NCBI RefSeq assembly: GCF_030013595.1
Contig: NZ_CP122768.1
DNA: 64,000 nt
Strand: one strand, 5' to 3'
Source of the DNA: Escherichia coli
GTDB taxonomy: Bacteria > Pseudomonadota > Gammaproteobacteria > Enterobacterales > Enterobacteriaceae
In this document: positions 53,112-57,485 of the stretch, in pieces
Layout of the letters: the number at the start of each line of letters is the position of its first letter
Numbering within the stretch: position 1 is the first letter of the stretch
Position numbers and translations under genes: made by a program
The notes under the pieces: generated by a model
What the model was told of the DNA's origin: nothing
Seen by the model: only the letters and a program-made list of their open reading frames with translations
The model's database searches: none

Positions 53112-53870
53112 TTATGCCTGATGTAAAATAGTTAATACTGTGCGCAAATCATTTACCGAGATTTGCCCTGGCGCAGAGGCTTTTTTTACCGCACCAAAAG
53201 TTGCCGCCGAGCCAAATACTTCACCAGCCAGACGAGAAATTACGCCAGTTTTTGCCATCGACATCGTGATGATTGGACGATCGGCATACTGCTCCTGCAT
53301 CTCCAGGGTCGCGGCAAGCAACGTCAGCACATCGCTGGTACTTTGCGGCATCAGCGCAATCTTAGGAATATCGGCGTCGAAGGACTGCATTTTGCGCAGA
53401 CGGGCAATGATTTCTTCGGCTTCCGGCGTTTTATGGAAGTCATGGTTGGACATGACAACTTTCACATCATGCGCGTGGGCGTAGGCGACGGTTTCTTTAA
53501 CCTGATCATCGCCGGTAAATAACTCCAGATCGATCATATCAACCAGGCCACTATCGATGGCTGCACGATTGAGTGCAATATATGCCTCGGTGGAAATCGC
53601 CTGCTCGCCGCCTTCTTTGGCACTGCGGAAGGTAAACAGCAGCGGTTTTTCTGGCATGGTTTCACGGAGAATTTTTGCTGCCGCCATGACAGACTCCACA
53701 TTGGAGAGGTCGGCATAGTGGTCCACACGCCATTCCAGAATATCAAAGTCCGCTTCACGATAGGCGAGAGCTTCGGATTTCACGCTGGCGATATCTTTCG
53801 CCATCAGCGAGACGATGATTTTAGGTGCGCCCGTACCAATGACGAGATCTTTTACAGTTACGGTTTTCAT
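53112..53870 (-). CDS. aroD: 3-dehydroquinate dehydratase (type I)
   Basis: 252-aa ORF recognised as AroD. Confidence 0.95.
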
Positions 53871-53900
53871 TTTTTACCCTTTCTGCACGCGGTCAGCCTG

Positions 53901-54767
53901 TCAGGCACCGAACCCCATGACCTGTTTAACATATTCCAGAGGGAAATCTTTGCCAGTCCATAACGTGAACTGTTCAGCCCCTTGCCACAACAACATGCCG
54001 TATCCATCAATCGTTTTGCAACCAGCTTGTTGCGCCTGCTGCAATAACTTCGTCATATGCGGGTTATACACGCATTCAGTGACCAGAAGTCCCGGATGTA
54101 ACAGACTGATATCATTAACCAATGATTCATTCTCAAGGGGTTTCATACCCACTTTTGTGCCATTGGTTAAAATGTCGGCGGAAGCCAGGGCTTCAGCAAA
54201 GGCTTGCTGATCGGCGAGATCGGTGACCGTGACGACACAATCGGTGTTTTCGTTAACCCGCTGCGCGAAGGCGAGGGCTTTATCGAAGAACTCATCCCGA
54301 CGGTTAAAGAGTTTAATTTCTTTTAAACCTTCAATTGCCCCCTGCGCGCCAATCGCCGTTGAGGCACCTCCGGCCCCTAACAGCACCATCGTTTTGCCTT
54401 TGATATCAAAACCGCTCTCTTTAATGGCGCGAATATGGCCCGTGCCGTCGGTGTTATAGCCACGCAGATAGCCATCATCATTAACGATGGTGTTGATGGC
54501 ACCCACCAGTTTGGCCGCTGGCGTTAATTCATCAACATATTCACACGCCAGTTGTTTGTTCGGCATTGATACACCAGTTCCGCGCATTTTGAGGGCTTTT
54601 AATCCTTCAATTGCTCCGGGAAAACTATCGTTATCCACTTCAAAGGCCATATAGGTAAATGGCAATCCCGCTTTTTCTAAGGCTTTATTCTGCATTTCAG
54701 GCGATAAACTGTGGCGGATGGGATAGGCCATCAGCCCAATCAATTCGTATTTTGCGGTAACATCCAT
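53901..54767 (-). CDS. ydiB: quinate/shikimate dehydrogenase (NAD(P))
   Basis: 288-aa ORF recognised as YdiB (AroE paralogue). Confidence 0.9.
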
Positions 54768-54778
54768 AATTAACTCCT

Positions 54779-56050
54779 TTAACCTCTATGCTTAATTGTG
54801 TTTAACCGGGTGCTAAATTTACGCTCGCCAAACCGCACATCATTTTCAGGAATAATGAAAACGCGGTAATAGCGGATAAAGACAATAATTGCGGTAATCA
54901 GGGCCAGCAGCGCGAAAGTAAAATCGAGAGCAATGATATATTGCAGGCCGATGTTCGACAGATAACCGGTAATCAGCGGAATAACAAAGTTAGCCAGTCC
55001 ACCCATCATCATATAAATACTGGTGACTTTGGCTTTGCTTTTGGGGAAAAACTCTGACATGACCGAAACGCCGAGCTGTAAAATGCCGCCAGCTGCTGAG
55101 AAACCGATAACAAAGGCTCCGGCATTACACACCAGTGGAGAAGGGTACAGGTAGATAATGGCTGCTGTTATTGTTGCCAGTGCAGAGTTAAATACATTAG
55201 CCCAGATGGGCCGGACCATTTTTTTCAGTAGTGCGGCAAAAATAAAGACACAGACCAACGAGCCCATACTGTAATAAGAGATGGTTTTTAATGCTTCAGC
55301 TTCTGACATACCAGCAAAAGCCATCGCATATTTGGGCATCCACACCACAATCACATAAAAGGTCGAGAATGCGGCTACACCGAACAGTACCGATGAAACA
55401 CCTTCCAGCCAGACTAACGGTTTGCTGTTCATTTGCGGTAATTCATGAGCTACGCTGGCGTCCACCAACTGGCTGGGGAATTTGCTTTTCAACAGCATCA
55501 GTGTGATCAGTACAAACAGAATACCCGGAATAATCAGCCCATAGCCGTACCAGATGTTATTGAGCAACATATAGCTCACCAGCATTGGGTAGAACATTTG
55601 CCCGAATGACACCATCGCTTTAACCAGTATGACCGCCGAACCAGAGGCTTTCGGAAAGCATTCCATGAGCGCGGGGTAGCCACCCGTATCCAGCGCTGAG
55701 TTAGCGATACCTACGCACACTGCCAGACAGTAGGCGAGAGTTAAATTCGGGCAAGCAGGGATACCAAAGAAGAATAGCAGATACATTATTACTGCCATTA
55801 ATATTACCGCCCGACGACCAAACTTATCGGAGATCACACCGAAGAATAAAATACTGATCAATCGCCCCAAACCGATACCGGAAATTAAATAGGCAATGCC
55901 CGCGTTGTCAGTGGAAAACTTTTCTGCCAGAGATGACATATTTTGGGCAAGCGTAATAACACTAATGCCGTGCAGGAAATAGCTGAAGTAAATACAAAGA
56001 ACAGCCAGGATAAATGGCGTGCTGAAAGCCTTATTTTGAGACATTTTCAC
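54779..56050 (-). CDS. ydiN: MFS transporter YdiN
   Basis: 423-aa polytopic ORF; recognised YdiN. Confidence 0.8.
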
Positions 56051-56270
56051 AGCTCCTTGCTGAAAGATAATTTCGTTACCGTACGTATTGTTCTCCGACG
56101 GTTTACATAATTACTATACTGAAGATGATTTTCCCTGGGTACATGGCATATAGTTTATGTTTCCAGGAATATTGCATGTCATAGTTTGTTTTTGATCGCG
56201 ATTTTCCTTAGTTAGCGCAGAAAGAGTTATTTATCCGTAAGATCTTGCATGACCTGAAAAGAATATTGCA

Positions 56271-57485
56271 TTACCCACCCGGAGCGACATTTTCCTTTAG
56301 CGAGTGATGCCGCGTTTCTTTGCGGCTGCGTAAGCCGATAAACAGTGCCAGTAAAAAGCCGATGGCAGCGATGGCGGTATCGAACCACATAATATCGGCA
56401 ATACTTCTTTGGGACAGATGAGCCGTAATCAACGGAATGGTAAATGTTGCAATACTGCCCGCACTGTAATAGATCCCTGTAGCTTTACCTTTAGCATAGG
56501 GGAAACGTTCAGCCATTAACGTCAGGCCAATTTGCACAACACCTCCAGCAGAGGTAAAACCAATGACAAAAGCAAATATTATCACCACATAAAATGTGGG
56601 ATGCAGACAGACGGTAAACAGAGCAATAAATGAGATAAAGGTGTACAGCATCAGTAATGTTGTTGGGCGAACGGTATTACGAATGAGTGGAGCGGTAATA
56701 AATACACAAAGCAGCGAACCCACGGTGTAGATACTAAGTAGTTTGATCGACATAGTGTATGACATGCCTGCAACAAATTGTCCGTACTGTGCCAGCCACT
56801 GGCTAACCAGATAAAACGTTGCCATTGAGATATAGCCATATAAGGTATAACTGGCTAAATCGATAATTGAACAGCGATGTTCCGTAGAGCTGGTGGTTTT
56901 CTTTATGACAGGTAAGCGACGACCCGGATGGGGTGGGAACGTACAACGGCATAAAAACAGAGCGTTAATAAACATAATGCCTGCGGCAATCATAAAGGAC
57001 CAACCGAACCACAGTTCAGCCCACACTAACAGGATGATGATTAGCGGTAATAAAAATTGTCCGCTGGAAACAAATGCTTTAATTAAAATATTGGCTGTCC
57101 CCGGTGAGCGTGGAAAAGCTTCCATCAAACTGGGATAGGTGCCTGCATCGAGAAAACTGTTTGCCATTCCCGCCAGAAAGCCAAAAACATAAGCGATAAT
57201 GATGTTATTGGTGTGCAGGATGCCAAAAAAGAAGGCCATATAGCAGCACATCCCGAGCATGATAAAAGGGCGGCGACCAAAGCGATCGGATAATAATCCT
57301 GCAAAAAGCAAGACACTTAATCGACCAATGCCCAGTGATGAGATAACTATCGAGACGCCCGCGGCATTAGTCTGCCAAAGCGTCTCCAGCGAGGCCATAT
57401 TCAGGCTCATCAAAATGACGCCCATACCATGCACCAGGTAATTAAAATACAACCCCAGTGCGGTAGGGTAATAGGGATTTTTCAT
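56271..57485 (-). CDS. ydiM: MFS transporter YdiM
   Basis: 404-aa polytopic ORF; recognised YdiM. Confidence 0.8.
   Translation of the reverse strand: MKNPYYPTALGLYFNYLVHGMGVILMSLNMASLETLWQTNAAGVSIVISSLGIGRLSVLLFAGLLSDRFGRRPFIMLGMCCYMAFFFGILHTNNIIIAYVFGFLAGMANSFLDAGTYPSLMEAFPRSPGTANILIKAFVSSGQFLLPLIIILLVWAELWFGWSFMIAAGIMFINALFLCRCTFPPHPGRRLPVIKKTTSSTEHRCSIIDLASYTLYGYISMATFYLVSQWLAQYGQFVAGMSYTMSIKLLSIYTVGSLLCVFITAPLIRNTVRPTTLLMLYTFISFIALFTVCLHPTFYVVIIFAFVIGFTSAGGVVQIGLTLMAERFPYAKGKATGIYYSAGSIATFTIPLITAHLSQRSIADIMWFDTAIAAIGFLLALFIGLRSRKETRHHSLKENVAPGG

Follow-up and report, generated by a model that had tools for sequence, protein, structure and literature searches.

The ydiM and ydiN-ydiB-aroD genes and their relatives

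We focus here on four genes of Escherichia coli, ydiM and ydiN-ydiB-aroD, which lie together on a 64-kb stretch of contig NZ_CP122768.1 (assembly GCF_030013595.1); the whole of this stretch is referred to below as the window, and the coordinates of its features are collected in Table 1. The locus is ordinary, well-annotated E. coli core genome. Of 5426 complete E. coli genomes, 5425 contain a match, at 95-100% identity, to a query of 7.5 kb around it, the four genes are conserved and intact in 5304 to 5425 of the 5426, and RefSeq annotates K-12 MG1655 and further genomes with identical gene names and gene order. The arrangement is real and conserved, and a chance pattern is excluded. The original prediction, made from the sequence alone, had placed a quinate/shikimate uptake and catabolic unit here. 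In gene order, coordinates and the spacers of 11 bp (ydiN-ydiB) and 30 bp (ydiB-aroD), it proves exact in every detail when set against open reading frames (ORFs) and protein families, and the second gene of the major facilitator superfamily (MFS) that it had noted upstream of ydiN is indeed there, across a gap of 226 bp. On balance, we judge it probable that the locus is the E. coli copy of a widespread cassette for the uptake and interconversion of hydroaromatic acids, in which ydiN, ydiB and aroD are transcribed together.

AroD matches the dehydratase model TIGR01093 with 292.2 bits (cut-off 139.3) and Pfam PF01487 (DHquinase_I) with 260 bits, and it retains the catalytic residues E86, the general base H143 and the Schiff-base lysine K170; this enzyme is also the dehydroquinase of biosynthesis. 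YdiB scores 669.9 bits against the quinate/shikimate dehydrogenase equivalog NF009390 (cut-off 349), and its residues 1-288 match the E. coli YdiB structures 1NPD/1O9B with E = 3.7e-194. The YdiB sequence of the window essentially equals that of the K-12 enzyme, which, according to work attributed to Michel et al. in 2003, reportedly uses both quinate and shikimate, with NAD or NADP. YdiN and YdiM are 12-helix MFS carriers (Pfam MFS_1, cut-off 33.4: 114.3 and 109.8 bits, respectively) and paralogues of each other, with 36% identity and E = 7e-83. The annotated start codon of ydiN is an ATG; a GTG two codons further upstream would extend the limit of the gene to 56050.

The evidence that carries our reading comes from the relatives of the two transporters. 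YdiN, YdiM and eight diverged homologues were aligned, and a scan of one genome per bacterial species yielded 80 loci from other species, which were taken with 10-kb flanks and onto which the proteins of the window, together with those from the first contexts, were mapped by tblastn. A YdiB-type dehydrogenase lies at most 3 kb from the transporter in 76 of the 80; the remaining four comprise two truncated contigs and two loci with the gene just past this distance. A dehydroquinase is present in 77 loci (type I in 73, type II in 4). Furthermore, a LysR gene stands beside the cassette in Firmicutes, Klebsiella, Phytobacter, Yersinia, Serratia, Dickeya, Brenneria, Symbiopectobacterium and Prodigiosinella; most loci carry one, with 31-93% identity between the copies and the Yersinia protein. 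Its effector domain matches that of Listeria QuiR (Lmo0488, PDB 5TED) with 226 bits and E = 8.6e-66. The 5TED structure was crystallised with shikimate bound, and QuiR is a shikimate-dependent activator (10.1101/2025.04.08.647683). The conserved core would handle quinate, dehydroquinate, dehydroshikimate and shikimate.

The two transporters of E. coli have different relatives in this survey. In Klebsiella, Phytobacter and Firmicutes, the transporter of the cassette has its best score against YdiM, at identities of 42-62%, which makes the second MFS gene upstream the more widely conserved partner. Judged by sequence, the transporter in most other lineages is orthologous to YdiM and not to YdiN. 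Every YdiN orthologue, at 63-97% identity, has ydiB-aroD-ydiF-ydiO next in line, or else ydiF-ydiO immediately after it, and YdiN thus appears to be specific to loci of this type.

The rarer contexts bear on where the substrate comes from and on what is done with it. The Telmatospirillum locus, whose YdiN homologue is 51-52% identical, combines TetR, LysR and IclR regulators with a type II dehydroquinase, a shikimate dehydrogenase (SDH), an MFS carrier, a chemoreceptor and a 634-aa QuiC1/QsuB-like protein, and a metagenomic locus has the order shikimate kinase-MFS-SDH-dehydroquinase. Contexts with a dehydratase and a chemoreceptor, with a shikimate kinase or with an enoate reductase (see below) imply a substrate from outside the cell, and import seems more likely than export for the cassette transporters. 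The Telmatospirillum cluster could also be taken to mean that E. coli obtains carbon from quinate or shikimate by way of protocatechuate. We consider this very improbable. Clusters of the oxidative type account for only 1 of the 80 loci, and in the 64-kb window there is no dehydroshikimate dehydratase, no homologue of the 634-aa dehydratase-like protein of Telmatospirillum and none of type II dehydroquinase. To our knowledge, E. coli K-12 has no beta-ketoadipate pathway. Moreover, EcoCyc still counts quinate among the dead-end metabolites of K-12, because no transporter for it is accepted (PMC3781023). The original prediction thus has to be divided: its transporter-coupled hydroaromatic metabolism is borne out by the 80 loci and by the QuiR context, but a catabolic unit in the usual, oxidative sense is not what the window holds, since dehydratase, type II dehydroquinase and quiR are all missing from it. 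E. coli being without oxidative ring degradation, imported acids would be salvaged or passed on to reduction.

Reductive modules beside the cassette

The link between ydiN or ydiM and shikimate has already been published, in proposals of 2006, 2009 and 2023; what is new is the neighbourhood, in which the cassette stands beside a C=C-reducing module in almost every lineage. Among the 75 loci with both flanks readable, such a module adjoins the ydiB-MFS-aroD cassette in 74, the sole exception being the oxidative Telmatospirillum locus. There are three non-homologous types of module, all of which reduce a C=C bond conjugated to a carboxyl group. The first is an iron-sulfur flavoenzyme of the old yellow enzyme (OYE)/FadH type, about 680 aa long and encoded directly upstream of ydiB, in 22 loci that include Klebsiella, Phytobacter, Paenibacillus, Clostridium, Megasphaera and Isobaculum as well as Sporolactobacillus vineae, Bacillus massiliigorillae and Liquorilactobacillus; its top PDB relative is 2,4-dienoyl-CoA reductase and its top NCBIfam relatives are BaiCD and bilirubin reductase. 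The second, downstream of aroD in 13 Lactobacillaceae loci, consists of ApbE and a 770-aa flavoprotein with FMN_bind, FAD_binding_2 and FMN_red domains. Secundilactobacillus collinoides is among these. In its locus (L063, 215-18417) two pairs of genes for 3-deoxy-arabino-heptulosonate 7-phosphate (DAHP) synthase and dehydroquinate (DHQ) synthase flank the reductive cassette, and the neighbourhood also has an extra shikimate dehydrogenase, a short-chain dehydrogenase/reductase (SDR) and anthranilate synthase I, so that biosynthetic and reductive genes are mixed.

The third type, type A, is that of E. coli and occurs in 38 loci from Enterobacterales and Sutterella. It consists of ydiF-ydiO, for a CoA-transferase and an acyl-CoA dehydrogenase (ACAD), together with the electron-transfer flavoprotein (ETF) genes ydiQRST, with or without fadK. 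The gene ydiF follows aroD in all 38 and directly follows the MFS gene in L006 and L093; in the window, ydiO begins 13 bp past ydiF, and ydiQRST-fadK span 43942..49002. The linkage of these last genes to ydiN-ydiB-aroD is kept in loci of quite different order. In Sutterella (Betaproteobacteria), at identities of 60-84%, fadK-ydiTSRQ are divergent from ydiN-ydiB-aroD-ydiF-ydiO, and the block is without ydiL and ydiM. In L006, ydiN-ydiF-ydiO-ydiQ stand divergent from a ydiP-like gene, and ydiB and aroD are missing in between. L093, which was found by starting from YdiO and is a metagenome contig (Logan ERR12073413, 7129-17147), reads MFS-ydiF-ydiO-ydiQ-ydiR-aroD-ydiS-ydiT-fadK, with a dehydroquinase 65% identical to AroD; no shikimate dehydrogenase was found in this operon. 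Sporolactobacillus sp. CQH2019 (L084) has ACAD-ETF-ETF-QO-ferredoxin and a FadK homologue on either side of ydiB-aroD-MFS-MFS, and its relative S. vineae has the OYE-type enzyme in place of this ACAD/ETF set. Four independent rearrangements that keep cassette and module together argue for a functional link and not for mere inheritance. An enterobacterial ydiN...ydiT block also stands, at 69-91% identity, on a 21.8-kb contig of 'Martelella alba' BGMRC 2031 (L041), which is labelled an alphaproteobacterium; this suggests contamination or recent transfer.

The neighbourhood leads us to a tentative extension, namely that 11 genes (ydiN, ydiB, aroD, ydiF, ydiO, ydiP, ydiQRST and fadK; 12 with ydiM) form a YdiP-controlled, CoA-dependent and Cai/Fix-like system for the anaerobic reduction of shikimate and quinate. 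Quinate or shikimate of plant origin would be imported and converted to shikimate or dehydroshikimate, in both of which a ring double bond is conjugated to the carboxylate. FadK, as the priming ligase, and YdiF, as the recycling CoA-transferase, would form the CoA thioester; YdiO would then reduce the C1=C2 enoyl bond of the ring with electrons delivered via YdiQR, YdiS and YdiT. The product would be dihydroshikimate and the role that of an anaerobic electron sink or of respiration. The unit is probably larger than the four genes to which the original prediction had confined it, and the parts list of a Cai/Fix-like system (YdiN/YdiM, FadK, YdiF, YdiO and YdiQRST) is complete within 43942-57485.

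Several lines of evidence favour this extension. First of all, there is the near-constant presence of a C=C-reducing module of one of three unrelated types, together with the retention of the linkage in the rearranged Sutterella, L006, L093 and L084 loci. Second, the proteins have a family resemblance to CaiA, FixABCX and cyclohexanecarboxylate-CoA ligase. The second-best NCBIfam match of YdiO is CaiA, crotonobetainyl-CoA dehydrogenase (452 bits, short of the cut-off of 540); those of YdiQ, YdiR and YdiS are FixA, FixB and FixC (YdiR against FixB, 324 for a cut-off of 549), YdiQ and YdiS passing broader subfamily models only; the sole match of YdiT is FixX (144 bits, short of 166); and the second-best match of FadK is cyclohexanecarboxylate-CoA ligase (416 bits, short of 792). 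Scores below the Cai/Fix cut-offs mean that the ydi proteins are paralogues and that the system is like Cai/Fix without being Cai/Fix. Third, five of the seven copies of one sequence motif in the window fall in the regions before ydiN and ydiQ, where a spacing of 73 bp recurs, as described below. Finally, the reaction is known from gut bacteria: Little et al. (10.1101/2022.12.26.521950) showed for Sutterella wadsworthensis and Eggerthella lenta that the enoate of shikimate, a compound present in faeces, is reduced to hydroshikimate with a growth benefit, and the type strain of S. wadsworthensis carries the ydi block (L047).

The same observations have another side. S. wadsworthensis has many periplasmic flavin reductases, any of which could reduce shikimate, and one of them adjoins the block; the shikimate-induced enzyme of E. 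lenta is a flavin reductase and not an ACAD (10.1101/2022.12.26.521950). The adjacency in Enterobacterales could be simply inherited, L093 is without a shikimate dehydrogenase, and the aroD-ydiF spacer of normal E. coli has a strong stem-loop. FadK prefers C6-C8 fatty acids, and the action of YdiF, FadK and YdiO on hydroaromatic acids is putative. By convention, ydiFO, ydiQRST and fadK are assigned to anaerobic fatty-acid beta-oxidation (PMC3967523; 10.1101/2020.04.27.065417), a label that the extension would make incomplete or wrong, which we regard as possible rather than probable. In the S. wadsworthensis locus (L047, strain DSM 14016, 19-3283), a histidine kinase, a LuxR-type regulator and the flavin reductase, a 477-aa FAD_binding_2 protein, adjoin fadK; this protein is a candidate for the sort of inducible reductase that Little et al. 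described.

The link to hydroaromatic acids does not extend to every YdiO-like protein. At 63-68% identity, the homologues of Desulfovibrio and a paralogue in E. albertii are part of different cai-like systems, which have CaiB-type transferases but neither ydiB nor aroD, and the gene of a 74% identical homologue (L094) stands alone; the link is thus limited to the YdiO orthologue group, at an identity of at least 77%. An E. albertii-like contig (L096, 4504-12872) and Citrobacter sp. NCU1 (L022, 2365-4989) carry a second, paralogous cai-like cluster of AraC, CaiB-type CoA-transferase, MFS, two ACADs and ETF, in which the YdiO paralogue is 68-69% identical.

Table 1. Features in and around the ydiM, ydiN-ydiB-aroD locus, in positions of the window (HTH, helix-turn-helix; sRNA, small RNA).
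Feature	Position	Strand	Evidence or place
aroD, type I 3-dehydroquinate dehydratase, 252 aa	53112..53870	-	intact ORF, TIGR01093, Pfam DHquinase_I
ydiB, NAD(P)-dependent quinate/shikimate dehydrogenase, 288 aa	53901..54767	-	intact ORF, NF009390, 1NPD/1O9B
ydiN, MFS transporter, 421 aa, candidate hydroaromatic-acid importer	54779..56044	-	intact ORF, Pfam MFS_1
ydiM, MFS transporter, 404 aa, YdiN paralogue	56271..57485	-	intact ORF, Pfam MFS_1
ydiM-ydiN intergenic region, probable regulated ydiN promoter	56045..56270	-	phylogenetic footprint, motif statistics
site A, TGCAATATT	56262-56270		ydiM-ydiN spacer
site B, TGCAAGATC	56241-56249		ydiM-ydiN spacer
site C, TGCAATATT	56168-56176		ydiM-ydiN spacer
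aroD-ydiF spacer, short allele, 79 bp	53033..53111	-	alignment, without 65-bp segment
ydiF, family-I CoA-transferase, 531 aa, proposed downstream unit member	51437..53032	-	Pfam CoA_trans
ydiO, acyl-CoA dehydrogenase/enoyl-CoA reductase, 383 aa, CaiA-like	50272..51423	-	NF008997, 787 bits
ydiP, AraC-family regulator with cupin ligand domain, divergent from ydiQ	49318..50229	+	Pfam AraC_binding, Cupin_2, HTH_18
ydiP-ydiQ intergenic region	49003..49317	-	holds sites D and E
site D, TGCAAGATT	49193-49201		upstream of ydiQ
site E, TGCAAGATT	49120-49128		upstream of ydiQ
ydiQ, FixA-like ETF	48238-49002	-	NCBIfam, Pfam
ydiR, FixB-like ETF	47280-48218	-	NCBIfam, Pfam
ydiS, FixC-like ETF-quinone oxidoreductase	45935-47224	-	NCBIfam, Pfam
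ydiT, FixX-like ferredoxin	45645-45938	-	NCBIfam, Pfam
fadK, acyl-CoA ligase	43942-45642	-	NCBIfam, Pfam
ydiL, small Aca2/YdiL-family HTH protein	57585..57941	-	full-length PF08965, 203 bits
rprA, sRNA gene, between ydiK and ydiL	58077-58184	-	Rfam RF00034, 118.5 bits

Regulation, direction of transport and flanking features

In Yersinia, Dickeya and Serratia (L030, L037), quiR occupies the gap between ydiM and ydiN. Escherichia, Citrobacter and Kosakonia have lost this shikimate-sensing regulator of the ancestral cassette, and tblastn gives no match for a quiR remnant in the 226-bp spacer of the window. What the gap does hold is a series of blocks strongly conserved across these three genera, and upstream of ydiN there are a -10-like TATAGT at 56113-56118 and GGAG as the ribosome binding site. 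Exact TGCAAKATY occurs seven times in the 64-kb window (3.8 expected), and five of the seven copies, all on the sense strand, fall in the two spacers upstream of ydiN and ydiQ. The spacing of sites B and C equals that of D and E, and the extended sequences match pairwise. K-12 has the identical five sites and none besides within 16 kb. Furthermore, the motif upstream of ydiQ is kept in all type-A genera, Yersinia and Sutterella included, the motif upstream of ydiN is present only in genera without quiR, and in L006 the motif lies inside the spacer shared by the divergent ydiP and ydiN genes. YdiP is probably the protein that would bind sites A-E, and E. coli has apparently moved ydiN-ydiB-aroD into the ydiQRST regulon, under YdiP, in place of the lost QuiR. 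YdiP has been tied to cold-shock genes, not to its neighbours (PMC9283627), which neither supports nor excludes local targets. Control of ydiN by CRP was also considered and rejected: TGTGA-N6-TCACA with at most two mismatches gives 24 sites where 28 are expected, none of them in the ydiM-ydiN spacer.

Because the spacers are of 11 and 30 bp, terminator-like sites are absent and the promoter blocks are conserved, ydiN-ydiB-aroD would be transcribed as a unit, starting at a regulated promoter between ydiM and ydiN. No terminator-like site was found in the ydiN-ydiB, ydiB-aroD and aroD-ydiF spacers of the window. A sigma-70 and terminator scan gave nothing above shuffled background except the rprA terminator, the only convincing terminator-like site of the region, and is uninformative on an internal aroD promoter; among Rfam elements, 43000-60000 has RprA only, with no leader RNA or riboswitch. 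In the uptake and interconversion reading, the likeliest role of YdiM and YdiN would be proton-coupled import of quinate, shikimate and/or 3-dehydroshikimate. YdiB would then convert quinate to 3-dehydroquinate and interconvert 3-dehydroshikimate and shikimate with NAD(P), activities established in the literature and by structures, and AroD would turn dehydroquinate into dehydroshikimate, which is likewise established. The imported acids would feed chorismate synthesis, as salvage, or be handed on to the products of ydiF/ydiO/ydiQRST/fadK, which would reduce the double bond of the ring.

A number of points weigh against this reading. No quiR-like ORF was found in the window (E <= 1e-3) and no quiR-like DNA in any complete E. 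coli genome at blastn sensitivity; being without quiR, the unit may be poorly expressed or decaying. The cargo of YdiN and YdiM is putative. Both proteins fall below the cut-off of every NCBIfam transporter family, including the aromatic acid:H+ symporters of TIGR00895 (TC 2.A.1.15; 43.7 bits for YdiN and 39.2 for YdiM, cut-off 418.55), and a sequence search of the PDB gave no relative of YdiN. Furthermore, aroD reportedly has a constitutive promoter of its own, described by Duncan et al. in 1986, in which case the upstream promoter is not needed for aroD. Classical work is said to have found that quinate feeds aro mutants of Aerobacter (Klebsiella) and not those of E. coli. The EcoCyc curators see no compelling evidence for quinate transport in K-12 (PMC3781023), and cells depend on ydiM for bo3 oxidase activity and for taking up copper normally (PMC10588857). 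To the same side belong the export-related observations on YdiN and YdiM that are taken up below. With the NCBIfam cut-offs unmet and YdiN without a sequence relative in the PDB, the naming of a transporter subfamily for YdiM and YdiN was dropped; the top NCBIfam match of YdiN is TsgA (NF002982), at 69.6 bits below its cut-off of 221, and TCDB places the two proteins under 2.A.1.15.12/13, as given in PMC10588857.

Several of these points could be pressed further, to a locus that is no functional unit now, with aroD a housekeeping gene, ydiB a dispensable paralogue of aroE and the transporters engaged in something unrelated, for example copper for bo3 oxidase. The missing quiR, the quinate dead end of EcoCyc, the requirement for ydiM in copper uptake and the cold-shock link of YdiP would all fit such a relic. 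We nevertheless find it unlikely, since all four genes remain intact in nearly every E. coli genome, and ydiN, ydiB and aroD are co-induced under carbon limitation, a result of Johansson and Liden (2006) as cited in PMC4585142. Moreover, the promoter blocks of ydiN are invariant across three genera without quiR, which argues for maintained, rewired regulation and not for decay.

The direction of transport requires separate consideration. From the citations in PMC4585142 and PMC8788726, Johansson and Liden proposed YdiN as a transporter of shikimate or of by-products, and according to PMC4585142 they also weighed it as an exporter of aromatic by-products. On such an account, YdiB and AroD would run backwards under carbon limitation or overflow, and YdiN, perhaps with YdiM, would expel quinate, dehydroshikimate and other by-products. 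The RefSeq label 'putative exporter' on YdiM, the isoprenol tolerance or sensitivity of a ydiM deletion, as cited in PMC10588857, and weak NCBIfam matches to the efflux families EntS, MdfA and Bcr/CflA agree with this, but these matches lie far under their cut-offs. More importantly, deletion of ydiN raised the external shikimate titre 1.3-fold (PMC8788726), as expected if re-uptake is lost, and the homologous cassettes stand under a shikimate-activated regulator and beside consuming enzymes, which fits uptake. Export is thus an improbable function for these carriers in our judgement, and uptake is the reading that we retain. It agrees with earlier work in which YdiN, YdiL and YdiM were grouped with the aro genes and deletions of ydiN and ydiB disturbed shikimate and aromatic metabolism (Hu et al. 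2009, PMC2672614), and in which about 75% of YdiM/YdiN homologues neighboured a shikimate-pathway gene (PMC10588857, 2023). The comparative data sharpen this published hypothesis in three respects: import is favoured over export, YdiM is the widely conserved cassette transporter, and QuiR was lost while ydiN was apparently rewired to the control of ydiQRST.

The aroD-ydiF spacer of the window is itself unusual. It lacks a 65-bp segment that in other E. coli directly follows the aroD stop codon, holds a GC-rich stem-loop (CGGCGGG...CCCGCCG) and is flanked by the imperfect direct repeats TAAGCAATAATATTTCG and TAATAAAAATATTTCG; the spacer folds with -35.2 kcal/mol in the long allele (144 bp) vs -20.6 kcal/mol in the short one. 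The long allele is present in 5409 of 5425 E. coli genomes. A 43-mer across the short-allele junction occurs in none of 5426 genomes, and a control 43-mer for the long allele in 4721. The two closest genomes, NZ_CM149870.1 and NZ_CM149862.1 (pig isolates HCP5S3_I2 and LCP30S3_I5), are 100% identical over 51000-58500 of the window and also carry the long allele. The short allele is therefore a private deletion or a sequence artefact; it could raise read-through from aroD into ydiF-ydiO. Both pig isolates also carry an IS5-like ISKpn26 insertion, which the window is without, and their record spans the query plus 1264 bp, which we take to split into the insertion sequence (about 1199 bp) and the 65-bp segment.

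On the far side of ydiM lie ydiL and rprA. YdiL belongs to a family (Aca2/YdiL, PF08965) of anti-CRISPR-associated HTH regulators, and its gene precedes ydiM in type-A Enterobacterales loci for which the ydiM flank was recovered; neither ydiL nor ydiM was detected in 'Martelella alba' L041 or in the metagenome-assembled genome L043. Where ydiM sits within the cassette, as in Klebsiella and Firmicutes, ydiL is missing.

Comparison with known systems

The closest known relatives of the conserved core are the qui1/qui2 loci of Listeria monocytogenes, which have the same enzyme pair, a YdiB-type dehydrogenase and a type I dehydroquinase. By the hallmarks of the Listeria cassette, E. coli has the adjacent ydiB and aroD (30 bp apart) but not the divergent QuiR-type regulator, whose orthologue accompanies the cassette in Yersinia, Klebsiella and Firmicutes and was lost in E. 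coli. A further difference lies in the fate of dehydroshikimate, which in Listeria goes to protocatechuate via a dehydratase; the E. coli window has no such gene.

Among characterised transporters, ShiA is the E. coli MFS symporter of shikimate and dehydroshikimate with H+. It belongs to the metabolite:H+ symporter family and is encoded elsewhere on the chromosome, unlinked to the enzymes. YdiN and YdiM are not of this family, giving 24 bits or no match against TIGR00883 (metabolite/H+ symporter); deletion of shiA or ydiN nevertheless had a similar and additive effect on shikimate titres (PMC8788726).

For the reductive extension, the nearest parallel within E. coli is CaiTABCDE with FixABCX. 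The parts correspond, in that both have a transporter, and FadK is the counterpart of the ligase CaiC, YdiF of the transferase CaiB, YdiO of the reductase CaiA and YdiQRST of FixABCX. The differences are that YdiF is a family-I transferase (Pfam CoA_trans), whereas CaiB is of family III, and that the ydi locus additionally has ydiB and aroD. Caffeate respiration by CarABCDE of Acetobacterium woodii presumably follows the same parts list.

A second parallel is found in cider lactobacilli of the collinoides group, which, in work ascribed to Carr et al. (1957) and to Whiting and Coggins (1971), reportedly reduce quinate to dihydroshikimate. Besides a transporter, such a pathway needs exactly three enzymes, namely a dehydrogenase for quinate/shikimate, a dehydroquinase and a C=C reductase; the 13 Lactobacillaceae loci, that of S. 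collinoides among them, have this gene set, and Klebsiella and many Firmicutes have it with another kind of reductase. E. coli would reduce CoA thioesters via YdiF, YdiO and ETF, whereas the lactobacilli would use a soluble flavoenzyme. In the literature searched, which covers few subscription journals, no assignment of genes to the dihydroshikimate pathway of lactobacilli was found. If the extension holds, the genes of a lactic-acid-bacteria pathway first described about 70 years ago would be at hand, about a dozen poorly understood E. coli genes would have a function, and the 'quinate dead-end' gap in E. coli metabolic models would be closed. It would also explain the quinate and dehydroshikimate by-products and the re-uptake of shikimate in industrial shikimate strains, and it would name enterobacterial players in the gut conversion of quinate from coffee and fruit, quinate being a precursor of urinary hippurate.

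Finally, the respiratory flavin reductases of the gut (10.1101/2022.12.26.521950) share with the ydi system the proposed net reaction, shikimate to 3,4,5-trihydroxycyclohexanecarboxylate, and the habitat. They differ in being secreted FAD_binding_2 flavoproteins fed by an electron-transport chain, while the ydi system would be cytoplasmic and CoA-dependent. The ydi genes would thus, if the extension is true, provide an enterobacterial, Cai/Fix-style counterpart both of the lactobacilli pathway and of shikimate reduction in Sutterella.

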